Shown here: in pieces, positions 16,862 through 41,552 of the stretch
How the letters are laid out: every line of letters starts with the position of its first letter
How positions within the stretch are numbered: position 1 is the first letter of the stretch
Origin: Nocardioidaceae bacterium
GTDB lineage: Bacteria > Actinomycetota > Actinomycetes > Propionibacteriales > Nocardioidaceae
DNA length: 64,000 bases
Assembly: GCA_025980475.1 (NCBI GenBank)
Contig: JAICXL010000005.1
Coordinates: 4,636 to 68,635, forward strand
Direction of reading: 5' to 3'
Made by a program: the position numbers and the translations under genes
Notes under the pieces: model-generated
Told to the model about the DNA's origin: nothing
Databases searched by the model: none
Seen by the model: only the letters and a program-made list of their open reading frames with translations

Positions 16862-16914
16862 GCCTGCGACCGTATCCCCGGCGGTAGCGTTTGCCGATGT
16901 GAGGACTTGCCAGC

Positions 16915-18207: not shown

Positions 18208-18352
18208 CCCCGGCCGCCGCCGGTGCCGCCGCCGCGCCCACAACGGTTGCCAGCGGGGCCGGCGTTCCTTCGGCATCTCTCGCCGTCGATGGTGTGTGAT
18301 GGGCCTCACTACGTTGAGGCATCTCGGTCGCACTAGTGGCAGGAGGATCCAG

Positions 18353-20667: not shown

Positions 20668-21149
20668 CCGAGGAGCTGCACGAGATCCGGCTGCACGTCA
20701 ACGGGACGTCGTACGCCCTGACCGTTCCCGGCCGCCGGCTGCTCTCCGACGCGCTGCGCCACGACCTCGGGCTCACCGGCACCCACGTCGGCTGCGAGCA
20801 CGGCGTCTGTGGCGCCTGCACGATCCTCGTCGACGGTGCCCCGATGCGCTCGTGCCTGATGTTCGCGGTCTCGGCCGTCGACGCCGAGCTCACCACCGTC
20901 GAGGGGCTGGCTGACGCCGACGGCTCGCTCGGGCCGGTGCAGCAGGCGTTCCTCGAGTGCCACGGACTGCAGTGCGGCTTCTGCACGCCCGGCTTCCTGA
21001 CCACGATCACCGCCGGGCTGCGCGACAACCCCCGGCCCACGCACGCGGAGGCCCGCGAGATGGTCGCCGGCAACCTGTGCCGCTGCACTGGCTACCAGAA
21101 CATCGTCAAGGCTGTGGAGCGGGCCGCGGAGCTCGGGGCCGGCCGATGA
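20664..21149 (+). CDS. Mo-hydroxylase [2Fe-2S] small subunit
   Basis: GCEHGVCGACT, CGFCTPG and CRCTGY cysteine motifs. ATGA overlap upstream. Confidence 0.9.
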   Translation: MTEELHEIRLHVNGTSYALTVPGRRLLSDALRHDLGLTGTHVGCEHGVCGACTILVDGAPMRSCLMFAVSAVDAELTTVEGLADADGSLGPVQQAFLECHGLQCGFCTPGFLTTITAGLRDNPRPTHAEAREMVAGNLCRCTGYQNIVKAVERAAELGAGR

Positions 21150-23584: not shown

Positions 23585-24228
23585 AGATCGCCGGTGAGGC
23601 GACCCTGGTCGCGCCCGTCGCCCAGGTCTGGGAGGCGCTGCTGGACCCCCGGGTCCTGGTGGCCACGATCCCCGGCTGCGAGCGGCTCGTCGCGACCGGC
23701 GAGAACGCCTACGACATGACCGTGACCGCCGGCGTCGCGGCGATCCGTGGGACCTACGCCGGCACCTGCGAGCTCAGCGACCTGAAGGAGCACGAGTCGC
23801 TGGTGCTGCGCGCGAGGGGCGCCGGTGCGCCGGGGACGATCGACGCCACGGTCCAGGTGCGCTTCGACGCCAACGAGGACGGCACCACCACGCTGTTCTA
23901 CGACGCGGACGCCATCGTCGGCGGGATGGTCGGCGGCGTGGGCCAGCGGATGCTCACGTCGGTGAGCAGGCGGATGGCGACGGAGTTCTTCAGCAACGTC
24001 GAGCGGGCGATCAGCGGGGTGGCGGCCCACGAGGAACCGGTTGCGCCGTCGACCGCTGCCGCCCCGACCGCGCCGGGTGTCTACACCGCGCCCCCACGGC
24101 CCGCTGGTGGGCTCGACCAGGACAGCTTCCTGAAGGGGGTGGCCCTGGGTGCCGGCCTGGTCCTGGCCGGGGCGGTCGTGGGCGGCGTCTTCGGGCGGAG
24201 GGCGCTGACGTGTCCGACCTCTCGGTGA
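23581..24228 (+). CDS. CoxG/SRPBCC-family protein with C-terminal TM anchor
   Basis: MKIAGEATLVAPVAQVWEALLDPRVL.. is a CoxG-like start. ATGA overlap with the large subunit. Confidence 0.75.
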   Translation: MKIAGEATLVAPVAQVWEALLDPRVLVATIPGCERLVATGENAYDMTVTAGVAAIRGTYAGTCELSDLKEHESLVLRARGAGAPGTIDATVQVRFDANEDGTTTLFYDADAIVGGMVGGVGQRMLTSVSRRMATEFFSNVERAISGVAAHEEPVAPSTAAAPTAPGVYTAPPRPAGGLDQDSFLKGVALGAGLVLAGAVVGGVFGRRALTCPTSR

Positions 24229-25601
24229 TCTCCACGGCCCGGGAGATGGCTGCGGCGGTCCGCGCCCGGGAGATCTCCGCCCGGGAGCTGCTCGACCTGC
24301 ACCTGGCCCGGATCGCGGAACGCAACCCGGAGCTCAACGCGATCGTCTCGATCGACGAGGAGAGGGCCCGGGCCGCCGCGGCGCGGGCCGACGAGCGCAC
24401 CGCGCTCGGCCTCGAGACCGGCCCGTTGCACGGCCTGCCCTTCGCCTTCAAGGACACCCACGACGTCGCCGGTTGGCGAACGACCTACGGCTCGCCCCTC
24501 TTCGCCGAGCACGTGCCCGACGCCGACGACCTCGTCGTGGAGCGCGTCCGCGGGGCGGGCGTGGTCATCCTCGGCCGGACCAACGTCCCCGAGTTCGCGG
24601 CGGGGTCGCACACCTTCAACCGGGTCTTCGGCACCACGCTCAACCCGGTCGACCCCAGCCGGTCGGCCGGCGGCTCGAGTGGCGGGGCGGCGTGTGCCCT
24701 GGCGTCGGGGATGCTGCCCCTGGCGGACGGCTCCGACATGGGCGGCTCGCTGCGCAACCCGGCGTCTTTCTGCGGCGTGGTCGGGATGCGGCCGTCGCTG
24801 GGCCGGGTGCCGGGCTGGCCGACGAGCAACCTCTGGGAGGCGACCGCCACCGCAGGGCCGATGGCGCGCAACGTCGCCGACCTGGCGCTGCTGCTCTCGG
24901 TGATGGCCGGACCGGACCCGCGGGTGCCGACCGCCCTCGCAGCGCCCGGCAGCGACTTCGCCCCGCCGGTCGCCGGGTCGCTGGGCGGACTCCGGGTCGC
25001 CCACTCGATCGACCTCGGCGGTGCCTTCGAGGTCGACGGCGCCGTGGCCGCCGTCGTCGAGGCGTCGGCCTCGGTCTTCGCGGCGGCGGGGGCCGACGTA
25101 CGTCCCGACCGTCCCGACCTCGCCGAGGCCGAGGACTGCTTCCGGACCCTGCGCGCCTGGCTGTTCCAGGCCTCCTTCGGCGATCTGCTGCGGGAGCATC
25201 CCGACGGCTTCAAGGAGTCGCTGGCCGACAACATCCGGGCCGGCGCGGCGCTCACCGGTGCCGATGTGGCGCGCGCCTACGCACAGCGGACCGCCCTGGC
25301 CGAGCGGATGCGGGCGTTCTTCACGAGCTACGACGTCCTGGTGCTGCCGGTCTCGCAGGTGCCGCCGTTCCCGGCCGACCAGGAGTTCCCCCGGTCGATC
25401 AACGGAAAGCCGATGAGCACCTACCTGGACTGGATGCGGTCCGCCTACTTCATCACCGTCACCGGGTGCCCGGCGATCTCCGTGCCGGGCCGCACCACTC
25501 CCGACGGCCTCCCGGTGGGCATCCAGGTCGTCGCGCCGCACGGCGCCGAGCGACGGCTGCTGGAGGTCGCCGCCGCGTTCGAGGAGGCGACCGCGGGCTG
25601 A
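24210..25601 (+). CDS. amidase-signature (AS) family amidase
   Basis: FAFKD (Lys), GGSSGGAA and GSDMGGSLR motifs of the Ser-cisSer-Lys triad. 19-nt overlap with the CoxG-like gene. Confidence 0.9.
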   Translation: MSDLSVISTAREMAAAVRAREISARELLDLHLARIAERNPELNAIVSIDEERARAAAARADERTALGLETGPLHGLPFAFKDTHDVAGWRTTYGSPLFAEHVPDADDLVVERVRGAGVVILGRTNVPEFAAGSHTFNRVFGTTLNPVDPSRSAGGSSGGAACALASGMLPLADGSDMGGSLRNPASFCGVVGMRPSLGRVPGWPTSNLWEATATAGPMARNVADLALLLSVMAGPDPRVPTALAAPGSDFAPPVAGSLGGLRVAHSIDLGGAFEVDGAVAAVVEASASVFAAAGADVRPDRPDLAEAEDCFRTLRAWLFQASFGDLLREHPDGFKESLADNIRAGAALTGADVARAYAQRTALAERMRAFFTSYDVLVLPVSQVPPFPADQEFPRSINGKPMSTYLDWMRSAYFITVTGCPAISVPGRTTPDGLPVGIQVVAPHGAERRLLEVAAAFEEATAG

Positions 25602-25616
25602 GGCTGCTGCGCCCCG

Positions 25617-25700
25617 TTGTCCACAGCCCAGCCCGCTTCCTGTGACTTCTCGGCCCCTTCCTGTGGAGGACCGGGCAGCAGCTGTGGACGCGCCTGTGCA
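25617..25700 (+). promoter_or_regulatory. DnaA-box-like / TGTGGA motif array (locus 1)
   Basis: Perfect TTGTCCACA at 25617-25625. CTTCCTGTGAC at 25636-25646, CTTCCTGTGGAG at 25657-25668, CTGTGGAC at 25682-25689 and TGTGCA at 25695-25700. Core spacing is 21, 21 and 12 nt. Confidence 0.5.
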
Positions 25701-25731
25701 TTGCGAGAATTCGTCGAAATAGTTGGCGAAA

Positions 25732-25960
25732 CCCCTTGCGCGGCCATCCCCGCGGGGCATAGAAATCTCTCACGCGGTCCCTCCGGGGATCAGCGGGACC
25801 GGCAGGAAGCGGTCGATCCAGACGCCGAGGAAACTCGTCGCAGTGGCAGGTGGCAGCGCCGCTGGGATCGATGGCGGAGAGTCAGTCGATCGGAGTGTCA
25901 CCGCCGATCATCAGAAGGGCCCGTGCAACTCATACTTGCGCGGGCCCTTCGTCTTTCTCC
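25732..25960 (+). ncRNA. candidate small RNA (predicted only from promoter-like and terminator elements)
   Basis: TAGTTG -10-like hexamer (25720-25725) lies 31 nt after the last TGTGGA core. A strong terminator ends the unit at about 25960. No convincing ORF; internal hairpins (CCCCGCGGGG; CGGTCCC..GGGACCG). Confidence 0.25.
25914..25960 (+). terminator. intrinsic terminator-like hairpin
   Basis: GAAGGGCCCG (25914-25923) pairs perfectly with CGGGCCCTTC (25941-25950). 17-nt loop, then the T-rich tail GTCTTTCTCC. Confidence 0.6.
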
Positions 25961-25991
25961 GATCGCCCTCACCGACGTGGCCGCCAGCGAT

Positions 25992-26026
25992 GCTATACAC
26001 GCTGTGATTGCTATACGCGCTATACT
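25992..26026 (+). repeat. three direct GCTATAC repeats; the last forms a TATACT -10
   Basis: GCTATAC at 25992, 26010 and 26019. TATACT (26021-26026) lies 6 nt before GTG 26033. Confidence 0.6.
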
Positions 26027-26032
26027 TCGCTG

Positions 26033-27181
26033 GTGCCTCGGATCGCCAATCCCTACCGGCCCGGGTTCAACCAGGCGCCGGCCTCCCTCGCCGGTCGCGA
26101 CGCCGTCCTTGCGGCGGTCCGGGAGGCGCTCGACGTCGCGGCGCTCGACGCACGCACACCGAGGCCGCTGGTGCTGGCCGGCGGCCGCGGCGTCGGCAAG
26201 ACGGTGCTCCTCGGCGAGACGGCCGCGATCGCCGCGGACACGTTGAGCTGGCTGACCGTTCCGGTCGAGGTGCGCCCCGGCCGGCCCTTCACCCCCCAGC
26301 TGGTCGAGCGCCTGCACACGGCCCGCCACCTCTACGACCAGGCGCCGGCCGGCGGCAAGCTGATGGTCAGCGGGGCGAAGGTGCGGGCGACCGTGCTGGG
26401 CGTGGGCGGCGAGCTCGACATCGTCCGTCGGGAGCCCGGTCCGGGACCCGCCGTTCCCCTGGAGGCGGCCCTGGCCGAGGCCTGCGAGGCGGCGCAGCGG
26501 CGTGGCGCGGGGCTGGTGGTGACGCTCGACGAGCTCCAGCTGGCCGGCCGCCACGAGCTGGCCGACTTCGCCGCCACCCTGCAGCAGCACGTCGGTGACG
26601 ACTGGCCGCTGGTGGTGGTGCTCGCCGGGCTGCCGAACATCCGCGACTCGCACCGGGGAGTGACCTACCTCGAGCGATCGGAGTGGCATGTCCTGGGACT
26701 GCTGGACCGGGCGGCCAGCGTCGAGGCCCTGACCGTCCCCGCTGCGGCCGCGGGCCGCCCGATGAGCGCCCCCGCAGCGGCAGCGCTCGCCGAGGCCTCG
26801 GGCGGCTACCCCGACGCGATCCAGGTGATGGGCCATCACGCCTGGCGCGCGTCGCACGGCGCGGCCCGGATCGACGTCTCGCACGTGCCGGGCGCGATCG
26901 AAGCCGCCGAGCAGGACCTCGCCGCCGGCCTCTACGCGTCCCGCTGGGAGGACGCGTCGCCCCGCGAGCGGGAGTACCTCGCGGCGCTGGCGTGGCTGCT
27001 CGCCGACGAGGAGGTCGTGGGCGGCGGCGCGGTCGCCCGTCGGCTGGGCAAGGACACCCGGAAGGTGTCCTACCTGCGCGACCGGCTGCTGCGCAAGGGC
27101 ACCGTCTTCGCCCAGGGCGGCGGCCTGCGCTTCGCCGTTCCGGGGATGGCCGGCTGGATCCGGTCACACGTCGGGCGTTGA
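26033..27181 (+). CDS. AAA+ ATPase with C-terminal winged-helix domain (Orc1/Cdc6-like 'ATP-binding protein')
   Basis: N-terminal NPYRPGF, Walker A GGRGVGKT, Walker B VVTLDELQ, and a C-terminal wHTH-like segment (REREYLAAL..ARRLGKDTRKVSYLRDRLLRKG). GTG 26033 chosen; the track start at 25850 runs through a terminator hairpin. Confidence 0.7.
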   Translation: MPRIANPYRPGFNQAPASLAGRDAVLAAVREALDVAALDARTPRPLVLAGGRGVGKTVLLGETAAIAADTLSWLTVPVEVRPGRPFTPQLVERLHTARHLYDQAPAGGKLMVSGAKVRATVLGVGGELDIVRREPGPGPAVPLEAALAEACEAAQRRGAGLVVTLDELQLAGRHELADFAATLQQHVGDDWPLVVVLAGLPNIRDSHRGVTYLERSEWHVLGLLDRAASVEALTVPAAAAGRPMSAPAAAALAEASGGYPDAIQVMGHHAWRASHGAARIDVSHVPGAIEAAEQDLAAGLYASRWEDASPREREYLAALAWLLADEEVVGGGAVARRLGKDTRKVSYLRDRLLRKGTVFAQGGGLRFAVPGMAGWIRSHVGR

Positions 27182-27228
27182 GGCGGACCCGCGGCGGCGG
27201 CGCGCCGGTCGTCACCCACAATGGGGCG

Positions 27229-27897
27229 GTGATCTACGAGGTCCTGCACAGCTTCGTCCCCCCGGTCGCCAAGGCGCTGTGGCGGCCGGACGTCCGCGGC
27301 CTCGAGAATGTCCCGCCCACCGGTGGGGTGATCCTGGCCAGCAACCACCTCAGCTTCGCCGACAGCGTGGTGATCCCGATCGTGGTGCCGCGCAAGGTGG
27401 TCTTCCTCGCCAAGTCCGACTACTTCACCGCCCCTGGCCTCGGCGGTGCCCTCCAGCGGGCGTGGTTCGAGGGGCTCGGGATGCTGCCGGTCGACCGCGA
27501 GGACACCAGGGCCGCGCTGACCTCCCTGGACACCGCGATGGCGGTGCTCGCCCGGGGGGAGGCGTTCGGGATCTACCCCGAGGGCACCCGGTCGCGCGAC
27601 GGACGGCTCTACCGCGGCCGCACCGGGGTGGCGCACCTGGCCCTGACGGCAGGCGTGCCCGTCGTACCCGTCGGGCTGCGTGGCACCGAGGAGCTCCAGC
27701 CGGTCGGCGCGAAGCTGCCCCGGCTGGTGAAGATCCGGGTCAGCCTGGGCGAGCCCATCGACTTCAAGAGCAGGTACGACGGTGTCCCCGCCGGCCGGGC
27801 CCGCCGCGAGGCGACCGACGAGATCATGGCCGCGATCCAGCAGCTGTCGGGCCAGGAACGCGCGGGCAGCTACAACGACCGCGCCCCCGACGCCTGA
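27229..27897 (+). CDS. lysophospholipid (1-acyl-sn-glycerol-3-phosphate) acyltransferase family protein
   Basis: HX4D motif (NHLSFAD) and YPEGTRSRDG block. GTG 27229 lies in frame within the 26683 track ORF. Confidence 0.8.
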   Translation: MIYEVLHSFVPPVAKALWRPDVRGLENVPPTGGVILASNHLSFADSVVIPIVVPRKVVFLAKSDYFTAPGLGGALQRAWFEGLGMLPVDREDTRAALTSLDTAMAVLARGEAFGIYPEGTRSRDGRLYRGRTGVAHLALTAGVPVVPVGLRGTEELQPVGAKLPRLVKIRVSLGEPIDFKSRYDGVPAGRARREATDEIMAAIQQLSGQERAGSYNDRAPDA

Positions 27898-28002
27898 GCG
27901 ACCGTCGTGGACCACCCGCCGCAGGAGGTGCCAACGGGAGCCCGGTCTGTCGGCAACATGTGCCGTCGCCCGGCCTGAGCGCGGACGGCTTGAATTCCTC
28001 CC

Positions 28003-30135
28003 ATGGAAGGCCAGCCCAGGACCGAGCGCCGCATCCGGATCGGCATCGACACCGGGGGCACCTTCACCGACGTGGTCGCCTTCGACGAGGACAGCGGCGA
28101 GCTGGTCAGCACCAAGACGCCCTCGACGCCGGCGAACCCGGCCGACGGCTTCATGGCCGGCATCGACAAGGTCCTCGGGCTCGTGGGCGCTGCGCCGGGC
28201 GCGGTCGCGGCGGTCAGCCACGGCACCACCGTCGCCACCAACCAGCTGCTCGAGGGCAAGGTGGAGCGGCTCGGCTTCGTCACCAACACCGGCTACGAGG
28301 CGATGCTCGAGATCGCCCGGCAGTCGGTGCCGGACGGCTACGGCAACTCCTACTTCTGGGTCAAGCCGGACCGGATCGTCCCGCGCGACCTGGTCAGGGG
28401 TGTCGAGGGCCGGCTGGACCACACCGGTGCCGAGGTCCGGCCGTTCGACGAGGCCGGCGCGCGGGGGGTGGCCCGCTGGTTCCGCGACCACGGCATCGAC
28501 ACCTTGGGCGTGTGCTTCCTGCACTCCTACGCCAACCCCGAGCACGAGGAGCGGATGCGCGCCGTGCTCCTCGAGGAGCATCCCGACGCGGTCGTCTCCC
28601 TGAGCAGTGCGGTGCTGCGGGAGTACCGCGAGTACGAGCGCGCGATGACCACCCTCGTCGACGCCGCGGTGAAGCCACGGCTGTCGCGCTACGTCGCCGA
28701 CATCACGGCCCGCTTGGCGGGCTACGCAGCCACCGCAGAGGAGTCTGCGGGGGGCGGTGCCCGTCGGGCGGTGCCGTTCTACGTGATGAAGTCCAACGGC
28801 GGCGTGCTCTCCGCCGAGCAGGTCGTGCACCAGCCGATCAGCACCGTCCTCTCGGGCCCGGCCGCCGGGGCGCTGGGGGCCGCGACGGTCGCGAAGGTGG
28901 CCGGCTTCGACCGGGTGCTCACCAGCGACGGGGGAGGCACCTCGACCGACGTCGCCCTGGTCGTCGACGGTGAGCCGACCCTGACCACGGAGGGGAGCGT
29001 CGGCGCCTTCCCCAGCAAGATCCCGATGATCGACGTGGTCACCGTGGGTGCCGGCGGCGGCTCGATCGCGTGGCTCTCGCCCGAGGGCACCCTCAAGGTC
29101 GGACCCCGGTCGGCCGGTGCCGATCCGGGGCCGCTGTGCTACGGCAAGGGCGGCACCGAGGTGACGATCACGGACGCCCACGCCTCCCTCGGCCGGATCC
29201 CGCCGCACCTGCTCGGCGGTGAGATCCCGCTCGACGTGGCCGCGGCCCGCAAGGGTGTCGAGGCGCTTGCCGCGCAGCTCGGCCTGGGCACCGTGGCCTG
29301 CGCGACCGGCATCCTCGAGGTATCCGCGTGGAACCAGGCCAACGCGTTGCGCCAGGTGACCGTCAAGCGTGGCCTCGACGTCCGCGACTTCACGCTGGTG
29401 ACCTTCGGGGGCTCCGGCTCGCTGCTGCTGTGCCGGCTGATGGACATCCTCGGCATCCCGACCGTGCTCGTCCCGCCGGACCCCGGGAACGTCTCGGCGT
29501 TCGGGCTGCTCACCGTGGACGTCAGGAACGACTACGTGCAGACCCACGTCGCGCTCGCGGACGCGCTCGACCCCGCGACCGTCGGGCAGGTGTACGACGA
29601 CCTCACCCGTGACGCCGCCGACGCACTGGTCCGTGAGGGCTTCCCACCCGATGAGCACGTGCTCGTCCGCACCGCCGACGTGCGCTACTTCGGTCAGGCG
29701 TTCGAGGTACGGGTCGCCGTACCCGACGGTCCGGTCGACAGCGCCCTCCTCGCCGAGGTGGCCGGGCGGTTCCACGCCGGGCACAGGGCGCTCTACGGCT
29801 ACGACTTCGCCGAGGACCCCGCCCAGCAGGTCGAGTGGGTCAACCTGCGGGTCACCGGGATCGGCCCGATCCGCCGGCCCGAGATCCGGCAGCACGCCGT
29901 CCAGCCGACCGCGCCGACCACCGCCCCCCGCAGCGTCCGGTCGGTCTGGTTCGACGCCGAGGGTGGCTACGACGAGACCCCGGTCCACTGGCGGCCCGAC
30001 CTGGCCCCGGGTGCGGTCGTCGCCGGGCCGGCGGTCATCGAGGAGTTCGGTTCGACGGTGCCGCTGCACCCGGGGTTCGTCGCCCGCGTCGACGAGTTCC
30101 TCAACATCGTGGTGACCAGGGAGGCCGGCCGATGA
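28003..30135 (+). CDS. hyuA: hydantoinase/oxoprolinase family protein, A (HyuA-like) subunit
   Basis: 710 aa with RIGIDTGGTFTDVV at the N-terminus, typical of hydantoinase A / 5-oxoprolinase / acetone-carboxylase beta. Confidence 0.85.
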   Translation: MEGQPRTERRIRIGIDTGGTFTDVVAFDEDSGELVSTKTPSTPANPADGFMAGIDKVLGLVGAAPGAVAAVSHGTTVATNQLLEGKVERLGFVTNTGYEAMLEIARQSVPDGYGNSYFWVKPDRIVPRDLVRGVEGRLDHTGAEVRPFDEAGARGVARWFRDHGIDTLGVCFLHSYANPEHEERMRAVLLEEHPDAVVSLSSAVLREYREYERAMTTLVDAAVKPRLSRYVADITARLAGYAATAEESAGGGARRAVPFYVMKSNGGVLSAEQVVHQPISTVLSGPAAGALGAATVAKVAGFDRVLTSDGGGTSTDVALVVDGEPTLTTEGSVGAFPSKIPMIDVVTVGAGGGSIAWLSPEGTLKVGPRSAGADPGPLCYGKGGTEVTITDAHASLGRIPPHLLGGEIPLDVAAARKGVEALAAQLGLGTVACATGILEVSAWNQANALRQVTVKRGLDVRDFTLVTFGGSGSLLLCRLMDILGIPTVLVPPDPGNVSAFGLLTVDVRNDYVQTHVALADALDPATVGQVYDDLTRDAADALVREGFPPDEHVLVRTADVRYFGQAFEVRVAVPDGPVDSALLAEVAGRFHAGHRALYGYDFAEDPAQQVEWVNLRVTGIGPIRRPEIRQHAVQPTAPTTAPRSVRSVWFDAEGGYDETPVHWRPDLAPGAVVAGPAVIEEFGSTVPLHPGFVARVDEFLNIVVTREAGR

Positions 30136-32057
30136 CCGACAGCCGCAGGGCGCCGACGCAGTTCCCCTTCGGCATGCTGACCGCCGACGCGGGTGCGGGC
30201 GCCGACCCGGTGCTGGTCGAGATCGTGCAGGGCTCGCTGGCCAGCGTGGAGCTGGAGGTCGAGACCGCGATCGCGCGCACCAGCCGCAGCCCGATGATCC
30301 GCGACGCCCACGACTTCCGCGCCGGCATCCACGACCGGCTGCTGCGCAAGCTCACCGGCCGCTCCTACTCGGCGCTCGTGCACCCCGTCGCGCGCGACTT
30401 CCCGATCGAGCAGATGCGTGCGGGCGACGTCTTCTTCCACAACGACGTCTACCGCTCCGAAGGCGGCATCGGCCACCTGCCCGACCTGTGCGTGACGGTG
30501 CCGGTGTTCGGCGGCACCTCCGGGCCACGCCGCGTCGTCGCGTTCGTGCAGGCCTTCGGGCACCACGACGACATCGGCGGGGCGGTCCCCGGCTCGATGC
30601 CCTCGCACGCCACCACGGTCTTCGAGGAGGGCCTGATGGTGCCCCCGATCCGGCTCTGGGACGCCGGCGTGCCGAACCGCAGCGCGCTGGCGATCATGAC
30701 CCGCAACAGCCGGATGCCGGAGTCGCTGGCCGCCGACCTCGACGCCGAGTGCTCGGCGTGCCTGATGGGAGCGCGGCGACTGGGCGAGCTCTTCGACCGC
30801 TACGGCGTGGAGACGGTCGAGTCGTGCTTCGACGCCATCATCGACCGCACCACCCAGACCTACCGCCGCGAGATCCTCTCCAGGATCCCGGTCGGGCAGT
30901 GGACCTGGGAGGACTACGCCGAGCACGACGGCGTCGACGAGCCCAGGCTGCACGCCCAGCGGATCACGCTGACCCGGACGGCGGCCGACGACCCCGGCGG
31001 CGAGCGGCTGGTCCTCGACTTCGCGGGCACCTCGCCACAGGCGAAGGGCCCGATCAACCACTGCGGCGACTACAGCGACGGCGTCTTCCTGAAGAAGTGG
31101 CTCGCCCCGATCCTGCGCAACCTTGCCGACACGCCTGCCCGGATGGCCGAGCTCGACGTCAACGAGGGCGTCGTTCCGCTCATCGAGATGCGCTTCCCGC
31201 CGCCGGGCACGCTGCTCACCCCGGTCTTCCCCGCCCCGACCAACGCGCGCACCTTCGTGATCCTGCGGCTGCTCGGCGTGCTGGCCGGTGTCGTGGCCAA
31301 GGCGGTGGACGGCCGGATGCCCGCCGACCAGGAGACGATCCGCTACACCGGGGTCTACGGCGAGGACGCCGACGGCCGGCCCTACCTGATGCGCGAGGTG
31401 CTCGGCGGCGGGTCGGGCGGTCGCTACTACGCCGACGGGGAGGACACCATCCACGTCGTTCCCGACTCCCGCAACCTGCCCACCGAGTTCACCGAGGCAC
31501 GGTTCCCCTTCCGCGTCGAGAGCCTGTCGTTGGCCGTGGACTCCGGCGGCGCCGGGCAGTTCCGCGGTGGCCTCGGCTACGAGAAGCAGATCCGGATGCT
31601 GAAGGACGCCCACTTCATGTCGATCGCCGACCGGTCGATCCTCTCCTGCTGGGGAGTTCGCGGCGGCAGGGCGGGCCAGCCGTTCAGCGTCACCATCGAC
31701 CCCGGCGGTCCGGACGAGCGCGAGGTCGACGCCCTGGCCGACGCCGAGCCGGTGCGGGCCGGCGAGGTGATCCGGATCCGCACCACCGGCGGCGGCGGCT
31801 GGGGCGACCCGCTCGAGCGGGACCCGGCCCTGGTCGTGCGCGACGTGGTCTGGCACAAGGTCTCAGCGGCGGCGGCGTTCGCGGACTACGGCGTCGTACT
31901 CACCGGGGCGGCTGCCGACGACAACCTCGGGTACGACGAGGCGGCCACCTCTCGCGAGCGTGCCTCGCGTGCGCCTGCCGAGCGCTTCTTCGACCGGGGC
32001 CCCGGCTATGCACGGCTCAGCGGCGGCGAAACCGCTGCCGCCGTCGACGCGCGCTGA
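30132..32057 (+). CDS. hyuB: hydantoinase B/oxoprolinase family protein (HyuB-like)
   Basis: ATGA overlap with hyuA. DPVLVEIVQGSL..IARTSRSPMIRDAHDF is typical of HyuB. Confidence 0.85.
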   Translation: MTDSRRAPTQFPFGMLTADAGAGADPVLVEIVQGSLASVELEVETAIARTSRSPMIRDAHDFRAGIHDRLLRKLTGRSYSALVHPVARDFPIEQMRAGDVFFHNDVYRSEGGIGHLPDLCVTVPVFGGTSGPRRVVAFVQAFGHHDDIGGAVPGSMPSHATTVFEEGLMVPPIRLWDAGVPNRSALAIMTRNSRMPESLAADLDAECSACLMGARRLGELFDRYGVETVESCFDAIIDRTTQTYRREILSRIPVGQWTWEDYAEHDGVDEPRLHAQRITLTRTAADDPGGERLVLDFAGTSPQAKGPINHCGDYSDGVFLKKWLAPILRNLADTPARMAELDVNEGVVPLIEMRFPPPGTLLTPVFPAPTNARTFVILRLLGVLAGVVAKAVDGRMPADQETIRYTGVYGEDADGRPYLMREVLGGGSGGRYYADGEDTIHVVPDSRNLPTEFTEARFPFRVESLSLAVDSGGAGQFRGGLGYEKQIRMLKDAHFMSIADRSILSCWGVRGGRAGQPFSVTIDPGGPDEREVDALADAEPVRAGEVIRIRTTGGGGWGDPLERDPALVVRDVVWHKVSAAAAFADYGVVLTGAAADDNLGYDEAATSRERASRAPAERFFDRGPGYARLSGGETAAAVDAR

Positions 32058-33571: not shown

Positions 33572-34837
33572 GTGAGCACGCGCGTCGAGGCAGCACGACC
33601 ACCGGACCCGACGACCTCGGCCTGGGACCTGGTCATCGTCGGGGCCGGGCCTGCCGGAGCCGCGACCGCGCTCGGAGCGCTGGGCGCGGACCCGGGCCTG
33701 CGGGTGGCGCTGCTCGACCGCGCCGACTTCCCGCGCGACAAGGCCTGCGGTGACGGCGTCGCACCCCACGTCGTGGACCTCCTCGAGGCGGCCGGCGTCA
33801 CCGGGGTGGTCGACGGATGCGTGCCGGTGCCACGGCTGCGACTCTCCCGCGGCGGGCTCTGCGCCGACCGGACGATGACGCGTCCGGCCTGGGTGGTGCC
33901 CCGCACGGTCCTCGACCAGCGGATGGTCAGCGCCGCGCAACAGGCCGGGGCGACGCTTCTTCGCCACCGCACGCGGGCCCTGCAGCGGCGCGACCGGACG
34001 ATCGTGGTGGACCGCAGGCACGAGGCCTCGGTCGTCGTCGGCGCGGACGGCGCGCACTCAGTGGTCCGCAAGGCATCCGGCGTGCCCAGGAGCCCGATGG
34101 CCGTTGCGCTGCGTGGCTACGCACCGACGCCCGCCGACCGCTCAGGCATGCAGGTGCTGGTCTTCGGCACGAGCCGGCTCCCGTCGTACGCCTGGTCCTT
34201 CGACCGCGGCGACGGCCTGGCCAACATCGGGTACGGCGAGCTGCTGACCGGGCGTGACCGCCCGACCCGGGCCGAGCTGCTCGCCCGGCTCGACGAGCTG
34301 CTGCCCGGTGCCGCCCACGACGCCCGGAACTGGCGCGGTGCCCAGCTGCCCCTCTCCGGATGGCGCTGGCGACCACCAGATGGCCGCGTGCTGCTGGTCG
34401 GTGACGCCGCCGGCCTGGTCAACCCGATGACCGGCGAGGGCATCTACTACGCCGTGGCTACCGGGCTGGCCGCGGGGCGGGCCGCTGCGGAGGCGATCAG
34501 TGCGGGCCGTCCCGACACAGCGGGCGCGCGCTACCGCGCCGCCAGCGGGCCGGTGCTGGGCCGGCACCTGCCGCACAGTGCCACGGCTGCCCGGCTCTGC
34601 CGCGCCGGCGTGGTCATCGACGCGGGCCTGCGCGCCTCTGCGGCCGACCAGCGCGTCTTCGACGACCTCGTCGAGCTGGGGCTCGCCTGTGGCGGGATCA
34701 CGCCGGCCATGGCCCGTGGGGTGGCCCGCGGTGTGGCCCGCGGCCTGATCGGTGGCCGGGCCGGACGACCACGCACGACCATCCAGCCCGCGAGCCAGTC
34801 GCCGGAGAGGCAGGGGAGCCGAGAATGCGAATCGTGA
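33572..34837 (+). CDS. geranylgeranyl-reductase-family FAD-dependent oxidoreductase
   Basis: [13 protein letters not shown] dinucleotide fold, KACGDG, and [21 protein letters not shown]. Confidence 0.85.
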
Positions 34838-35916
34838 GCGTCCAGGGGGTCCTCCCCGAGCACCGCTACGAGCAGGCGCAGATCACCAGGTCGTTCACCA
34901 CCTCGATGCTGCGCGGGCAGGTCGACGAGGCCGTCGTCGCGCGCCTGCACCGCAACGCCCGCGTCGAGTCCCGGCACCTGGTGCTGCCGCTGGAGCGCTA
35001 CGGCGAGCTGCGCGACTTCGGCGAGTCCAACGACATCTTCATCGCCGCCGGCGTCGAGCTCGGCGCCCGCGCGGTCACCGACGCGCTGAAGGCCGCCGGC
35101 CTCACCCCGCAGGACGTCGACCTGATCGTGTCGGCGACGGTGACCGGGCTCGCCGTACCCTCCCTCGACGCCCGGATCGCCGCGCTCACCGGGATGCGGC
35201 CCGACGTGGTGCGGATGCCCCTGGTCGGTCTTGGCTGCGTTGCGGGCGCCGCCGGGGTGGCGCGGCTGCACGACTACCTGGTCGGGCACCCGGACGCCGT
35301 CGCCGTGCTGATGTCGGTGGAGCTGTGCTCGCTGACCCTGCAGCGCGACGACGTGTCGGCGCCGAACCTGGTGGCCAGTGGCCTGTTCGGCGACGGCGCC
35401 GCGGCTGTGGTGGCCGTCGGTGACCACCGGGCCCGCGACTGGGGGACCGACTCGCCCGGCCCGCCACGGCCGGACGTGCTGGCCTGCCGCAGCCGGCTCT
35501 ACCCCGACTCGGAGCGCACGATGGGCTGGGACGTCGGTGCGACCGGGCTGAAGATCGTGCTCGACGCCCACGTGCCGGAGCTGGTCAACGCCTACGTCGG
35601 TGATGATGTCCGCGGCTTCCTCGCCGACCACGGGCTGGGCCAGGACGACGTCGAGTGGTATGTCGCGCACCCAGGTGGACCGAAGGTGCTCGAGGCGATG
35701 CAGGACACCCTCGGGCTCGGGCAGGACGCCCTGCAGCTCACCTGGGACTCGCTGGCGCGGATCGGCAACCTCTCCTCGGCCTCGGTCCTGCACGTGCTGG
35801 CCGACACGCTCGTGCACCGGCCGCCGCGACCGGGGTCCTACGGACTGATGCTCGCGATGGGTCCGGGGTTCTGCTCCGAGCTGGTGCTGCTGCGCGCACC
35901 CGAGGCTGCCGGGTGA
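34825..35916 (+). CDS. type III polyketide synthase (chalcone/stilbene-synthase family, SrsA-like)
   Basis: Catalytic Cys ([10 protein letters not shown]), His ([11 protein letters not shown]) and Asn (IGNLSSASV). An alternative GTG start at 34834 would give a GTGA overlap with the upstream stop. Confidence 0.9.
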
Positions 35917-36470
35917 GCAGCGAGGCCTGGTTCACGCTCCTGGTCGGCGTGGTCGCGCTGGAGCGGCTGGCCGAGCTGGTCACCTCGAAGCGCAACGCCG
36001 CCTGGAGCAGGGCGCGCGGCGGCCGGGAGACCGGGCAGCGGCACTACGCGGTGATGGTCGTGCTGCACAGCGGCCTGCTGGCCGGTGCGCTCGCCGAGAC
36101 CTGGGCGCGGCGACCGGCGTTCGTCCCGGTGCTCGGGTGGACGATGCTCGCGCTGGTGCTGGCCTCCCAGGCGCTGCGGTGGTGGTGCATCAGCACGCTC
36201 GGACCGCGCTGGAACACGAGGGTGATCGTCGTGCCCGGTCTGGCCCCGGTGGCTGCCGGGCCCTACCGCTGGCTGCGCCACCCCAACTACGTCGCGGTCG
36301 TCGTCGAGGGGTTCGCCCTGCCGCTCGTGCACACGGCCTGGATCACCGCGGCCGTGTTCACCGCCTGCAACGCCGCCCTGCTCGCGGTGCGGATCCGGGT
36401 CGAGGAGGCCGCCCTGGCCACGCTGCCGGGCGCGCCCGGCGCCGCCGGGGTCGCCGGGGCCGGGCGGTGA
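35913..36470 (+). CDS. isoprenylcysteine carboxyl methyltransferase (ICMT)-family membrane methyltransferase (SrsB-like)
   Basis: GTGA overlap with the PKS gene. TM helices and [17 protein letters not shown] motif. Confidence 0.85.
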
Positions 36471-37495
36471 CCGACCTGCTCGTCGTCGGCGGTGGCCCGG
36501 CCGGCCTGGCCACGGCGCTCTACGGCGCCCGCGCCGGCCTGTCCGTGACCGTGCGCGAGCAACGCGCCGGTGTCATCGACAAGGCCTGCGGGGAGGGACT
36601 GATGCCGGGGGCCGTGACAGCCCTCGCCGACCTGGGCGTGTCGCCGGCCGGCCAGGAGCTGTGCGGGATCCGCTACGTGGCCCCCGGCCGACGGGCCGAG
36701 GCCCGCTTCCGCCGCGGTCCCGGCCGGGGGGTACGACGCACCACCCTGCATGCCGCGCTCAGGTCGGCCGCGCTGGCTGCGGGGGTCGAGCTCGAGCAGC
36801 GGGCCGTCTCCGACCTGCGGCAGCACGCCGACGGGGTCACCGTCGACGGCGAGCGCGTGTCGTGGGTGGTCGCCGCCGACGGCCTGCACTCGTCGGTCCG
36901 TCGCGGCCTCGGGCTGGAGGGACCGGCGACGCCGCACCGGCGCTACGGGCTGCGCCGGCACTTCAGGGTCGCGCCGTGGACGTCGTTCGTCGAGGTGCAC
37001 TGGGCCGACTCGACCGAGGCCTACCTCACCCCGGTGGCCCCCGACCTGCTCGGCGTCGCGCTGCTGACCTCGGCGCGCGGACCGTCCTTCGACCACCACC
37101 TCGCGCGGCTCCCGGAGCTCCGCGAGCGGCTCGCCGGGGCCACCCCGGCCGGGCCTGTGCTGGGCGCCGGCCCGCTGCGACAGCGGGTGCGCTCCCGGGT
37201 GGCCGGCCGGGTGCTGCTGGTCGGGGACGCCTCGGGCTACGTCGACGCGCTGACCGGTGAGGGCGTGGCCCTCGCCCTGGCCCAGGCCCGGGCCGCGGTG
37301 GCTGCCATCGTCGACGGCGACCCGCAGCGCTACGAACGGCACTGGCACGCGCTGACCCGTCGCTACCGGTTGCTCACGGCGTCGCTCCTCGGCGCCACGC
37401 GTGTGCCGCCGCTGCGCCGCGCCCTCGTCCCGACCGCGGAGCGGCTGCCGTTCGCCTTCGCGGCCGCGGTGAACAGCCTGGCCCGGCCGGTGTGA
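36467..37495 (+). CDS. FAD-dependent oxidoreductase/hydroxylase (SrsC-like position)
   Basis: GTGA overlap upstream. LLVVGGGPAGLA, KACGEG and LLVGDASGYVDALTGEGVALA. Confidence 0.85.
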   Translation: MTDLLVVGGGPAGLATALYGARAGLSVTVREQRAGVIDKACGEGLMPGAVTALADLGVSPAGQELCGIRYVAPGRRAEARFRRGPGRGVRRTTLHAALRSAALAAGVELEQRAVSDLRQHADGVTVDGERVSWVVAADGLHSSVRRGLGLEGPATPHRRYGLRRHFRVAPWTSFVEVHWADSTEAYLTPVAPDLLGVALLTSARGPSFDHHLARLPELRERLAGATPAGPVLGAGPLRQRVRSRVAGRVLLVGDASGYVDALTGEGVALALAQARAAVAAIVDGDPQRYERHWHALTRRYRLLTASLLGATRVPPLRRALVPTAERLPFAFAAAVNSLARPV

Positions 37496-37585
37496 AGGCG
37501 ATTGGCACAAGTTGCCGTGGCCCGGGCCGGCCGTTGGCTGTTCCTGCCCGTGCCGGGCCGTCGACGCCCCCCTAGATTCGACGCC

Positions 37586-38527
37586 ATGCGGATCGTGATG
37601 GCGCTCGGCGGCAACGCCATGACGTCACCCGACGGCCGCGCCCGCGTCAGCGACCAGCAGCAGGCGATCACGGGCGCCTGTGTGCACATCGCCGACCTGG
37701 TCGGGCGAGGCCACGACGTGGTGATCACCCACGGCAACGGTCCGCAGGTCGGCAACCTGCTGCTGAAGAACGAGCTCGCAGCCGCCGAGGTGCCGCCCGT
37801 CCCGCTGGACTGGTGCGGTGCGTCGACCCAGGCGACGATCGGAATCACGGTGATGGACGCGCTCGACGTCGCCCTCGCCCGGCTCGGCATCGACAAGCCC
37901 ACCGCGACGCTGGTCTCCCGCACCCTGGTGGACGCGGACGACCCCGGTTTCGCGCGGCCAACCAAGCCGATCGGGCGGCACCTCTCGCGGGACGACGCCC
38001 AGGTGCTGATCGACCACGGCCAGCACTTCGTCGAGGTTCCCGGCAAGGGCTGGCGTCGCGTGGTCGCCTCCCCGGAGCCGGTCGAGTGCCTGGACGCGCC
38101 GGCCGCCGACACGCTGCTCGGCGCCGGCTACGTGGTGGTCTGCTCCGGCGGCGGCGGGATCCCGACGGTCAGGCGATCCGACGGTTCGCTCGCCGGGGTC
38201 GAGGCCGTGATCGACAAGGACCTCACGGCCTCGCTGGTCGCCAGGCACATCAACGCCGACGTGCTGGTGATCGCCACCGATGTCGACCATGCGGTCACCG
38301 ACTACGGCACCGACCACGAGCAGCCGATCGGCGAGGTCACGGCGGCGGAGATGCGCCGGATCGCCGAGCAGCAGCACTTCGCCGCCGGCTCGATGGGCCC
38401 CAAGATCGAGGCGGTGACCCGCTTCGCCGAGCACGGCGGCACCGGGGTGATCACCTCGCTGGGCAACATCTCGGACGCGGTCGGTGGCCGCGCCGGCACC
38501 CGCGTCGTACCCGCTCCCCGAACCTGA
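37586..38527 (+). CDS. arcC: carbamate kinase
   Basis: [12 protein letters not shown].., [15 protein letters not shown], and GGGGIP with a C-terminal GSMGPKIEA block; 313 aa. Confidence 0.9.
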
Positions 38528-38552
38528 ACGCGCAGAAACCGAAAGGAACCCC

Positions 38553-39659
38553 ATGCCCTCCGCCATCGAAGTACGCAAGGTGCCGCTGCACTCCGTCTCC
38601 GACGCCTCCGAGCTCGGCAGGCTGATCGACGACGGCGTCTTCGAGGCCGATCGGGTGATCGCGGTGATCGGCAAGACCGAGGGCAACGGCGGCGTCAACG
38701 ACTACACGCGGATCATCGCCGACCGGGCCTTCCGCGAGATGCTGGTGTCGAAGGGCGCGGACGCCGAACGCGTCAAGGAGGTCCCGATCGTCTGGTCCGG
38801 CGGCACCGACGGGGTGATCAGCCCGCACGCGACGATCTTCGCGACCGTCGACCCGGATCCTGCACACGGGCCGACCGACGAGCCGCGCCTGACCGTCGGC
38901 TTCGCGATGAGCGAGAAGCTGCTCCCCGAGGACATCGGTCGGCAGGCGATGGTCAGCAAGGTCGCCGACGCGGTCAAGGTCGCGATGGAACGCGCGGGCA
39001 TCACCGACCCGGCCGAGGTGCACTACGTGCAGACCAAGACGCCGCTGCTCACGATCGACACGATCCAGGACGCGAAGAGCCGTGGCCACGACGTCTTCAC
39101 CGAGGACACCCTGGCCTCGATGGACGTCTCCAACGGCGGGACGGCACTGGGCATCGCGGTGGCTCTCGGGGAGATCGAGATGCCGCGCGACGAGGACGTG
39201 CTGCGTGACCGCTCGCTCTACTCCTCGGTGGCCTCGTGCTCCTCGGGGGTGGAGCTGGACCGGGCCCAGGTCGTGGTGGTGGGCAACGCCCCCGGGGTCG
39301 GCGGCCGGTACCGTATCGGGCACTCGGTGATGAAGGACGCCCTTGACCAGGACGGCGTCTGGGAGGCGATCCGGTCCGCCGGCCTCGACCTGCCCGAGCG
39401 GCCGCGCACCGCGGACCTCGACGGCCGGCTGGTCAACGTGTTCCTCAAGTGCGAGGCGTCCCAGGACGGCCAGGTGCGTGGGCGTCGCAACGCGATGCTC
39501 GACGACTCCGACGTGCACTGGCACCGGCAGATCAAGGCCTGTGTCGGCGGGGTGGCCGCGGCGGTCACCGGTGACCCCGCGGTGTTCGTGTCGGTGTCGG
39601 CCGCCCACCAGGGCCCGGACGGCGGCGGGCCGGTCGCCGCGATCGTGGACCTGGGCTGA
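38553..39659 (+). CDS. ring-opening amidohydrolase of the AtzD/TrzD/barbiturase family (barbiturase or cyanuric acid hydrolase)
   Basis: 368 aa. [34 protein letters not shown] and a C-terminal [15 protein letters not shown] all match my recollection of AtzD (GKTEGNGCVNDYTR .. AEHQGPAGGGPFAVI). RBS AAAGGAA precedes ATG 38553. Confidence 0.85.
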
Positions 39660-39663
39660 CCGG

Positions 39664-40203
39664 TCAGGCCGACGGGTCGCGGCCGGTGAAGGCGGCGATC
39701 CGGTCCGGCGCCGGCGCGTCGTCGGGCAGCTGCACCGCCGCACCGAAGGCGTTGCCCCGGTTGTCGTCGGTGAGGTTGTGCCGGATGAAGTCGAGTCCGC
39801 GCTCGGCGGCCTCGGCGTCGAGCTGGTCGGTGGGCCGCCCGAGGGCCCGGGCGAGGTCCCACGCGTGCACGGACAGCTCCGCGACCTGCCAGTCGACCCC
39901 CTCCGCCGTCGCGGCGTCGCCGGCCGCGTGCCAGGCCTGTCGCAGGTCGTCGGCGGCCGTGTCGAACGTCGCGGACCACCCCTCGCTCACCGGCTCCGGC
40001 GCGGCTGACCAGTCCGGTTGCTGCCCGCGGGCGGCCTCGGTGAATTTGCGCACGCCGCCGATCAGGTGTCCGACGAGCGTGGCGACGTCCCAGTCCTGGC
40101 AGGGGGTCGGGTCCTGCAGGTTCTCCTCGTGGACGTGCTCGAGCAGGTCGCTGATCTGGTCGAGCGCGCGGGAGAGTGAGGTGACGGCGGCATCGGCGTT
40201 CAT
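39664..40203 (-). CDS. DinB/MDMPI-N-like (TIGR03086-type) metal-binding protein
   Basis: 179-aa 3' part of the track ORF from ATG 40203. PCQDWDVATLVGHLIGG is typical of the mycothiol-dependent maleylpyruvate isomerase N-terminal-like fold. Confidence 0.6.
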   Translation of the reverse strand: MNADAAVTSLSRALDQISDLLEHVHEENLQDPTPCQDWDVATLVGHLIGGVRKFTEAARGQQPDWSAAPEPVSEGWSATFDTAADDLRQAWHAAGDAATAEGVDWQVAELSVHAWDLARALGRPTDQLDAEAAERGLDFIRHNLTDDNRGNAFGAAVQLPDDAPAPDRIAAFTGRDPSA

Positions 40204-40274: not shown

Positions 40275-41552
40275 TCAGCCGTCGAGCCAGTCGCGGATCG
40301 ACGTGTTGTGCTGGCCCAGCGTCGGCGGCGCCTGGTGCCGCGACCGACCTCCGGAGTGGCCGTTGTCGTCGAACCTGACCGGTGACCCGGGGAGCTCGAC
40401 CGTGCCGAGCGTCGAGTGGTCCACCGACACCACCAGCCCCTGCGAGCGGGTCTGGTCCCAGGCGTAGACGTCGTCGATGGTGCGCACCTTGCCCGCGGGC
40501 ACTCCGGCGGAGGCCAACCTGGAGAGGCAGTCCTCGGCGGTCGAGGACGCGAAGAGCTCCTCGAGGAGCTCGATCAGCGCGTCCCGGTTGGCGACCCGGT
40601 CGGGGTTGGTCGCGAAGCGCGGATCTCCTGCGTCGAGGCCGAACTCCTTGCACAGGGCCCGCCAGAGGTTCTCCGAGCCGCAGGCGATCTGCACCGGCGC
40701 GGTCGCGGTGGCGAACATCCCGTACGGCGCGATCGACGGATGGTGGTCGCCGGCAAGGCCGGGCACCTCGTGGGCGACGGTCCAGCGGGTGCCCTGGAAG
40801 GCGTGCACACCGACCACGCTGGCCAGCAGGGACGTCCGCACCACCCGGCCCCGGCCGGTGCGCTCCCGCTCGTGCAGCGCCGCCAGCACCCCGAAGGCGC
40901 CGTTCATCCCGGCCAGCAGCGAGGTGCGTACGACGCGGCCGCGCCCGGTCCGCGAGCGCTCGTGGAGAGCGGCGAGCACACCGAAGGCGCCGTTCATGCC
41001 GGCGATCAGGTCGGCGATCGGCACGCCGACCTTGGTCGGCTGCCCGGTGCCGGTGATCGACATCAGCCCGCCCTCGCCCTGGGCGATCTGGTCGTAGCCG
41101 GCGCGCTTCGCCTCCGGCCCGTCGTGCCCGAACCCGGTGATCGACAGCACCACAAGTCGCGGGTTCAGCTCGTGCAGTCGCTCCACGGAGAAGCCGAGCC
41201 GGTCGAGCACACCGGTGCGGAAGTTCTCCATCAGCACGTCGGCCCGCTCGACCAGCCGTGCCAGGACGTCGGCGTCGGCCGGGTCCTTCAGGTCGAGGGT
41301 GAGTGACTCCTTGTTGCGGTTGGCGGAGAGGAAGTACGACGACTCACGCGCGTCGGCGGGTCCGACGAAGGGAGGGCCCCACGACCGCGTGTCGTCGCCG
41401 GTCGGGCTCTCCACCTTGATCACCCGGGCGCCCATGTCGCCGAGCATCATCGCGGCGTGCGGGCCGGCCAGGGCGCGGGTCAGGTCGAGGACGAGCAGGT
41501 CGGCCAGCGGGCCGTCGGGCTGGGCGTCGGGCTGGAGACCGGGGGATGTCAT
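40275..41552 (-). CDS. family III (CaiB/BaiF) CoA-transferase carrying a 30-codon internal tandem duplication
   Basis: LLVLDLTRALAGPHAAMMLGDMGARVIKVE N-terminus and the catalytic-Asp region PIADLIAGMNGAFGVLAAL. The duplication is described as a separate feature and finding. Confidence 0.85.
   Translation of the reverse strand: MTSPGLQPDAQPDGPLADLLVLDLTRALAGPHAAMMLGDMGARVIKVESPTGDDTRSWGPPFVGPADARESSYFLSANRNKESLTLDLKDPADADVLARLVERADVLMENFRTGVLDRLGFSVERLHELNPRLVVLSITGFGHDGPEAKRAGYDQIAQGEGGLMSITGTGQPTKVGVPIADLIAGMNGAFGVLAALHERSRTGRGRVVRTSLLAGMNGAFGVLAALHERERTGRGRVVRTSLLASVVGVHAFQGTRWTVAHEVPGLAGDHHPSIAPYGMFATATAPVQIACGSENLWRALCKEFGLDAGDPRFATNPDRVANRDALIELLEELFASSTAEDCLSRLASAGVPAGKVRTIDDVYAWDQTRSQGLVVSVDHSTLGTVELPGSPVRFDDNGHSGGRSRHQAPPTLGQHNTSIRDWLDG
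40824..41003 (-). repeat. in-frame tandem duplication, 2 x 90 bp, inside the CoA-transferase gene
   Basis: 40824-40913 versus 40914-41003. Both encode AGMNGAFGVLAALHER(E/S)RTGRGRVVRTSLL. My hand alignment gives 72/90 nt identical and 29/30 aa identical. Confidence 0.9.

Follow-up and report, generated by a model that had tools for sequence, protein, structure and literature searches.

A 64-kb stretch of DNA with 73% GC, which we call the window and which means here the whole stretch analysed, was examined on contig C15 of a 2.76-Mb, 92.8% complete genome of a Nocardioidaceae bacterium. It contains an ArcC-type carbamate kinase (CK) gene, arcC (37586-38527, + strand; ATG 37586, TGA 38525-38527; 313 aa), followed by bar (38553-39659, + strand; ATG 38553, TGA 39657-39659; 368 aa), which encodes a barbiturase orthologue of the AtzD/TrzD 'Toblerone' family. 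The kinase gene is upstream, and the 25-bp spacer carries a ribosome-binding site, GAAAGGAA, at 38541-38548 on the + strand, 4 nt 5' of the bar ATG. A convergent gene has its stop (39664) only 4 bp from that of bar, and the arcC-bar unit is therefore predicted to be bicistronic. The original prediction had paired an arcC-type kinase ending at 38527 with a ring-opening amidohydrolase that starts at ATG 38553 behind a ribosome-binding site, and our gene models and family matches agree with it. Its wording, a two-gene unit, is borne out by the adjacency, by a predicted promoter of the pair's own and by the convergent end, but understates the system, which here extends over about 28 kb. Open frames of ~690 aa that could be taken for arcC-bar fusion proteins were rejected as high-GC artefacts, since a stop separates the two genes and their frames differ.

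By family match and intact blocks, the first protein is a predicted carbamate kinase. It matches Pfam AA_kinase and passes the CK subfamily model NF009007 (301.6 bits, cut-off 266); its score for the arcC equivalog TIGR00746 is 341.8 bits, slightly below the cut-off of 358.25. Solved CKs align with it end to end over residues 2-309 (E 2e-74 to 2e-52), and every conserved CK block shows identity or conservative replacement when aligned with 1e19 and 1b7b. All carbamate-kinase blocks are present in the sequence, so a different enzyme of the amino-acid-kinase family, which the original prediction had allowed for, is not indicated. No other CK occurs in this genome. In an even draw of 301 genomes of the class, those with a barbiturase of ≥70% identity were counted as carriers, which gave 64 carriers including our own genome and 63 without it. 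CK identities in this class-level sample are bimodal, with a type at 56-65% and generic CKs at 39-47% in ~95 other genomes. The former type is found in 56/63 non-own carriers and elsewhere only once, as a contig-end fragment in G140. Thus, there is a CK clade specific to barbiturase genomes.

The sequence of the second protein clearly places it in the barbiturase clade and not with cyanuric acid hydrolase (CAH). It is full-length on PF09663 (480.7 bits) and TIGR02714 (589 bits), and matches the solved barbiturase 5hwe with 655 bits and ~86% identity over 368 aa, whereas the best solved CAH reaches ≤326 bits. Identities to this family are also bimodal in the class-level sample, at 73-90% in the 64 carriers and only 38-44% in six further genomes. 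The NCBIfam equivalog NF052395, 'cyanuric acid amidohydrolase AtzD', is passed by the bar product as well (478 bits, cut-off 360), and automatic naming would therefore mislabel this gene; other barbiturases are probably being annotated automatically as cyanuric acid hydrolases in the same way.

The pairing of the two genes is conserved. The 80 closest loci, from a scan with one genome per species and with barbiturases 82-90% identical, come from Nocardioides, Phycicoccus, Knoellia, Oryzobacter, Pseudonocardia, Streptosporangiaceae and Jatrophihabitans. CK lies directly 5' of bar in 78 of them, with a median gap of 45 nt (range -14 to 123), and it is immediately 5' of bar in 28/29 non-own loci of the class-level sample. 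Three unpublished genomes are included in our counts: G050/L066 is one of the 80 loci, G085/L099 is one of the 64 carriers and G056 is a genome with AllG only. No conclusion hangs on them. The adjacency of arcC and barbiturase genes recurs in other genomes, is conserved across several actinobacterial orders and far exceeds what chance would give. One could regard it as inherited synteny without functional coupling, as many of the 80 loci are in related genera and have a common adnAB neighbourhood. We disfavour this explanation and give it hardly any credence: the pair persists across several orders while its surroundings are rearranged, with genes between hydB and arcC, and after bar, varying by locus; the CK clade is specific to barbiturase genomes; and the pair has a dedicated predicted promoter with conserved operators.

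A carbamate kinase beside a ring-opening enzyme raises the question of where carbamoyl phosphate would come from. The original prediction had noticed no ornithine or putrescine carbamoyltransferase nearby, and the whole genome has only two genes with an OTCace domain, both on other contigs (an argF-like gene beside argB on C18 and a pyrB-like gene on C4). Arginine deiminase (ADI) is absent from the window, as had been said; an ADI-family gene is present elsewhere in the genome. Its match is in two halves at contig ends, C42:9231-9884 and C70:43126-43836, covering model positions 149-377 and 1-249, and these are probably one gene broken by assembly.

A probable candidate for the carbamoyl-phosphate-forming step, overlooked in the original prediction, is an AllHFG-like set of genes on the - strand of the window. 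AllF-AllG-AllH of E. coli is oxamic transcarbamylase, which converts oxalurate and Pi to carbamoyl phosphate and oxamate; allFGHK is one operon with the catabolic carbamate kinase AllK, so that carbamoyl phosphate and then ATP are formed (PMC11326118, PMC9843812). Homologues of all three E. coli AllFGH subunits are found here in overlapping genes: an AllH-like subunit (DUF2877; 16073-16861, ATG 16861; PF11392, 76 bits), an AllF/FdrA-like subunit (14616-16076) with Ligase_CoA and CoA_binding domains, which scores 378 bits on NF004760 FdrA, below its cut-off of 433, and an AllG-like subunit (DUF1116; 13222-14619; PF06545, 324 bits).

AllG follows barbiturase closely in the class-level sample. 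It is found in 63/64 barbiturase genomes, the exception being a genome that is 75% complete, versus 13/237 others, and only 4 of these 13 have the high-scoring type. Counts of genomes with bar and with AllG are equal within each family examined (f1 6/13, f4 8/14, f13 10/14, f18 12/14), and AllG was not found in the six genomes of this sample that have only CAH-type homologues of 38-44%. Among 50 further carriers, AllG is present in 49, and in ~40 of these it is 11-48 kb from bar on the same contig. A compact arrangement exists in G196 (L115), a genome of a different family with a 74% identical barbiturase, where molybdenum hydroxylase (MoDH), bar, an NCS2 permease, allH-allF-allG and CK lie within 12.7 kb. 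It has no HydB orthologue (see below), and nothing in this cluster is purine-specific. CK in one operon with the AllG gene set occurs in G196/L115 and in a second AllG clade, not in the window. This second, lower-scoring clade (200-290 bits), which may be a true oxalurate system or a system for another ureide, stands beside generic CKs in at least eight sampled genomes, with or without barbiturase, and is present in G097, G304 (L118), G136, G137 (L117), G077, G116, G124, G172 and G323. Because of the co-occurrence, the linkage, the G196 cluster and the partnership of AllG and CK, we tie the AllHFG-like set to arcC-bar. A recent study also placed allFGHK beside biuret and triuret genes in nitrifiers (PMC12625717, 2025), which hints at an action of the AllFGH family on ureides besides oxalurate.

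The direction in which the kinase works bears on the same evidence. CKs are reversible, CK-like enzymes are carbamoyl-phosphate synthetases in some archaea (PMC6022934), and this genome has a single CK, so an anabolic kinase could be imagined, which would use ATP to turn hydrolytically released carbamate into carbamoyl phosphate and so supply the synthesis of arginine or pyrimidines. Such a role would leave the AllFGH co-occurrence unexplained and spend ATP inside a catabolic regulon, and the characterised AllFGH-linked CK, AllK, is catabolic (PMC9843812, PMC11326118); we consider it very unlikely.

Similar promoters precede arcC and allH. Upstream of arcC, two operator-like palindromes lie at 37503-37549 on the + strand, TGGCA-N5-TGCC at 37503 (-83) and a degenerate TGGCT-N5-TGCC at 37535 (-51), followed by a predicted -10-like hexamer, TAGATT (37574-37579, + strand), which is separated from the arcC ATG by 6 nt (CGACGC). 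Leaderless genes of actinobacteria typically have a -10 hexamer 6-7 nt 5' of their start codon. The motif CACTAGGTTCGnnGC-ATG is found at the same place, with hexamer spacing of 6-7 nt, in most related arcC loci. The palindrome TGGCA-N5-TGCCA is located at -81 to -83 or at -49 of arcC in other genomes, exactly in 34/76 upstream regions and in relaxed form in 44/76. On the - strand, two putative operators 5' of allH (16898-16944) show the same geometry, TGGCA-N5-TGCAG at -83 and TGGCA-N5-TCACA at -51, and the -10 hexamer TACGGT (16874-16869) has a 7-nt spacer to the ATG at 16861. The two promoters thus agree in the positions of their palindromes (-83 and -51), in having a -10 hexamer 6-7 nt from the ATG and in the leaderless type of that start.

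We scanned the 64-kb window with a position weight matrix (PWM) trained solely on arcC-upstream sites of other genomes. The best match was in the allH/pucR region and the second at arcC; the fourth, CGGCA-N5-TGCCG (27951-27965, + strand), is an operator-like palindrome located 52 nt 5' of the hydA start codon. The allG-allF-allH genes of 20 other genomes invariably run divergently from pucR-permease or directly from the permease, and all 7 PWM matches scoring ≥13 in these genomes are in allH/pucR/permease intergenic regions. These sequence patterns argue for arcC-bar and allHFG being in one regulon. The core GGCA-N5-TGCC occurs 7 times in the window versus 2.0 ± 1.3 in shuffles. Five more exact copies are inside coding regions (12298, 21069, 28319, 48087 and 55366), those at 21069 and 28319 in island genes, and are probably chance matches. 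A scan of 37200-40000 for consensus sigma-70 promoters and intrinsic terminators found none, which is uninformative in actinobacterial DNA of 73% GC. The element TGGCAC-N-TTGC 5' of arcC might be read as a sigma-54 promoter; we rejected this, as the GG-to-GC spacing is 8 nt and not 10, and the element is the palindrome at -83.

The arcC-bar pair is the end of a larger island, as found by unbiased clustering of open reading frames in the loci and by family scans. A PucR-family regulator gene (16915-18207, + strand; start codon uncertain) is divergent from allH, an orientation kept in other genomes. It is followed on the + strand by an NCS2 permease gene (18296-19795), closest to RutG/uracil permease, and by the genes of a molybdenum hydroxylase (19792-24228), a candidate uracil/thymine dehydrogenase with FAD (19792-20667), 2Fe-2S (20664-21149), MoCo (~21146-23584) and CoxG (23581-24228) components. 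The MoCo large subunit matches NF040766, 'aerobic CO dehydrogenase large subunit, group 5', with 1488 bits; given the uracil-type permease and the barbiturase, this name is likely a misnomer.

An ATP-dependent pair of the hydantoinase/oxoprolinase family, HydA (28003-30135) and HydB (~30201-32057), is encoded further along the + strand. With the in-frame segment 30201-32057 as query, HydB orthologues (77-91% identity) were found in 61/63 carriers versus 1/70 non-carriers, and the sole positive non-carrier is a fragmented genome which also has a high-scoring AllG. HydAB is core to the island, is unusually conserved and marks barbiturase genomes as well as AllG does. The closest family for HydA is caprolactamase alpha, far under its cut-off, and we know of no described pyrimidine pathway in which HydAB has a role. 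HydAB might use ATP to open a second ring (e.g. 5-methylbarbiturate) or to hydrolyse malonamate, or it might form carbamoyl phosphate directly, and its ATP cost could be offset by the adjacent CK.

The last of these roles would make HydAB itself the partner of the kinase. By analogy with the acyl-phosphate intermediate of 5-oxoprolinase, it would place a phosphate on the carbonyl oxygen of an amide or ureide, be it urea, ureidomalonate or a barbiturate-type ring. Breakage of the C-N bond would then yield carbamoyl phosphate, and CK would regain the ATP, so that cleaving the ring or urea would be ATP-neutral. The genomic layout speaks for such a partnership: many loci have hydA-hydB-(CoA-transferase)-arcC-bar in an unbroken row, 6-18 nt separate hydB and arcC in L016, L054 and L069, the hydA promoter has the same operator, the HydB orthologue follows barbiturase as counted above, and urease is absent from most carriers. 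However, HydB is missing from just two carriers, G196 and G136, and these are the very genomes in which CK comes directly after AllG, so the kinase is retained there without HydB. Moreover, to our general knowledge no member of this family releases carbamoyl phosphate, and the equally conserved AllHFG would be left with no role. On these grounds, we think it unlikely that HydAB supplies the kinase.

To our knowledge, barbiturase is the only enzyme of the oxidative pyrimidine pathway with an assigned gene. The pathway was described in the 1950s; the product of barbiturase is ureidomalonate (N-malonylurea), and the textbook route ends in urea and malonate (PMC3758960). In this 92.8%-complete genome, none of urease alpha, urea carboxylase and allophanate hydrolase was found over cut-off, and urease alpha is present in 14/64 barbiturase genomes versus 91/237 non-carriers. 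Urea would be a dead end here because urea-using enzymes were not found over cut-off and few carriers have urease; the AllFGH paper reasons likewise for enterics without urease. A source of oxalurate is likewise not evident in the genome: no AllD-type ureidoglycolate dehydrogenase (Ldh_2/AllD) was found over cut-off, and the permease is uracil/RutG-like rather than xanthine-like.

These observations bear on whether textbook hydrolysis alone, by a ureidomalonase to urea and malonate, operates in these organisms, with AllHFG and the kinase serving another ureide, e.g. oxalurate from purines, and merely co-located in a nucleobase island. Ureidomalonase activity has been reported in Rhodococcus (PMC3758960, citing Soong et al. 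2001), a PucR-type regulator is encoded in the island and OHCU decarboxylase in the genome, and the amidase-signature (AS) amidase of the island (24210-25601, + strand) could be a ureidomalonase. Its orthologue, though, is restricted to the family of the window, whereas AllG and CK track barbiturase across families. In addition, CK is attached to bar and not to purine genes, the permease is of uracil type, the compact G196 cluster has no purine-specific genes, and AllD and the three urea-using enzymes are those not found over cut-off. We consider this explanation fairly unlikely. As for the amidase, it resembles AtzE-type amidases (277 bits), and we rejected it as a universal ureidomalonase/malonamidase, since close orthologues are in the window's own family only and the match to malonamidase E2 is weak (89 bits); it is a lineage-specific accessory.

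The best explanation of arcC-bar is a predicted, self-contained and regulated two-gene operon within an island and regulon for oxidative pyrimidine catabolism. According to our model, uracil or thymine would enter through the RutG-like permease and would be oxidised to barbiturate by the molybdenum hydroxylase, and barbiturase would open the ring to ureidomalonate. The AllH-AllF-AllG-like complex would then cleave ureidomalonate with phosphate to carbamoyl phosphate and malonamate, and the barbiturase-adjacent CK would form ATP from ADP and carbamoyl phosphate, with release of NH3 and CO2. Accessories may deal with malonamate or malonate, namely the AS amidase in this lineage and a family III CoA-transferase with or without a carboxyl-transferase. 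The reactions after barbiturase, and their substrates, are those that we infer by analogy, in that ureidomalonate can be viewed chemically as the CH2-homologue of oxalurate. On balance, we lean somewhat towards a mechanism in which an AllHFG-type enzyme phosphorolyses ureidomalonate and CK then forms ATP. The original prediction of a carbamoyl-phosphate-forming step after ring opening gains support from the cross-order pairing, the barbiturase orthology and the AllH-AllF-AllG candidate; the same evidence supports its remark that this step is absent from the described barbiturate pathway, and the literature searched gave no paper linking barbiturase with carbamate kinase or AllFGH.

Several points weigh against this interpretation. 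The FdrA-like subunit scores under the NCBIfam cut-off, and allHFG lies 21 kb from arcC on the opposite strand of the window. The substrate of AllHFG is deduced from context and from chemical analogy with oxalurate only, and HydAB, which is linked to barbiturase as tightly as AllG, is given no necessary role in the model. The textbook route exists at least in Rhodococcus erythropolis, for which a hydrolytic ureidomalonase yielding urea and malonate is on record (Soong et al. 2001, through its citation in PMC3758960). Our genome has some purine catabolism, as seen from its OHCU decarboxylase. Because arcC is the only CK of the genome and an ADI-family gene is present, the kinase could also serve arginine catabolism as a second role. 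Finally, related genomes are not independent, so co-occurrence counts such as those for AllG overstate the statistical support.

The remaining part of the island varies between lineages. An AAA+ gene (AAA_16 ATPase, ~25850-27181, + strand) and a PlsC-like acyltransferase gene (26683-27897, + strand) were identified by family scans. A low-GC intergenic stretch and the AAA_16 gene (together 25602-27181) split the molybdenum hydroxylase/amidase operon from acyltransferase-hydAB, and this stretch is without counterpart in most related loci. Between hydB and arcC, a block at 33572-37495 on the + strand holds type III polyketide synthase (PKS), flavoprotein and FAD-oxidoreductase genes; in other genomes, unrelated genes or nothing is found there, and the block looks like an insertion into the catabolic island. 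Many relatives have hydA-hydB-(CoA-transferase, sometimes with carboxyl-transferase)-arcC-bar as a single string. The family III CoA-transferase gene, which in the window lies on the convergent side of arcC-bar (40275-41552, - strand), is directly 5' of arcC on the same strand in many relatives. A Carboxyl_trans-domain gene follows the CoA-transferase, directly 5' of arcC or bar, in L084 (1468-2985), L061, L077, L079 and L116, and this placement would suit a pathway whose carbon leaves by decarboxylation of malonyl-CoA.

Compared with E. coli allFGHK, our system has homologues of the three transcarbamylase subunits and a CK, and the proposed chemistry is likewise phosphorolysis of an N-acylurea and then ATP formation. 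Most carriers here are without urease, similar to the urease-negative enterics discussed in the AllFGH paper. The biggest difference lies in the context, which is that of pyrimidines (barbiturase, uracil-type permease and molybdenum hydroxylase), in contrast to the allantoin context of allECD, with no AllD over cut-off. The proposed substrate would be one carbon longer, ureidomalonate instead of oxalurate, the gene order is allH-allF-allG with an FdrA-like subunit that does not reach its NCBIfam cut-off, and the kinase is detached from allHFG and joined in an operon with barbiturase.

The classical pathway of Rhodococcus, Nocardia and Mycobacterium (Soong et al. 2001, 2002, cited in PMC3758960) is matched here by the ~86% identical barbiturase and by the candidate molybdenum hydroxylase in the island. 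Its last step, as represented by that citation, is hydrolysis to urea and malonate, with no kinase, transcarbamylase or ATP-dependent hydantoinase, whereas these are conserved companions of barbiturase here. In the arginine deiminase pathway (arcA-arcB-arcC), a catabolic CK of the same family gains ATP from carbamoyl phosphate; unlike that system, arcC here has no catabolic ornithine carbamoyltransferase or ADI beside it, and none is on the window's contig. The cyanurate systems atzD-atzEGHF and trzD-biuH also employ a ring-opener of Toblerone fold, and the AS amidase of our island is AtzE-like, but the ring-opener here is of the barbiturase clade (655 versus ≤326 bits).

Taken more broadly, actinomycetes may break down pyrimidines oxidatively by an undescribed branch that conserves ATP and forms no urea, a proposal for which we see the arguments as evenly balanced. 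In this branch, AllHFG, as a 'malonamate (ureidomalonate) carbamoyltransferase', and a dedicated CK would replace ureidomalonase, HydAB would catalyse a further step, and one regulator would act via TGGCA-N5-TGCCA on leaderless promoters. If true, phosphorolysis of ureidomalonate with ATP formation by CK would add a variant to the known allFGHK module and would revise the last step of the oxidative pyrimidine pathway. The locus and its relatives offer a concrete gene set for it, comprising the permease, molybdenum hydroxylase, barbiturase, AllHFG-like complex, CK and HydAB. AllFGH homologues are liable to be read as oxalurate enzymes, which is a likely misannotation, and the recently identified AllFGH enzyme family would have a wider substrate range. 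The predicted end products are NH3, CO2 and ATP via carbamoyl phosphate, not urea, which would explain how urease-negative carriers recover the ring nitrogen.

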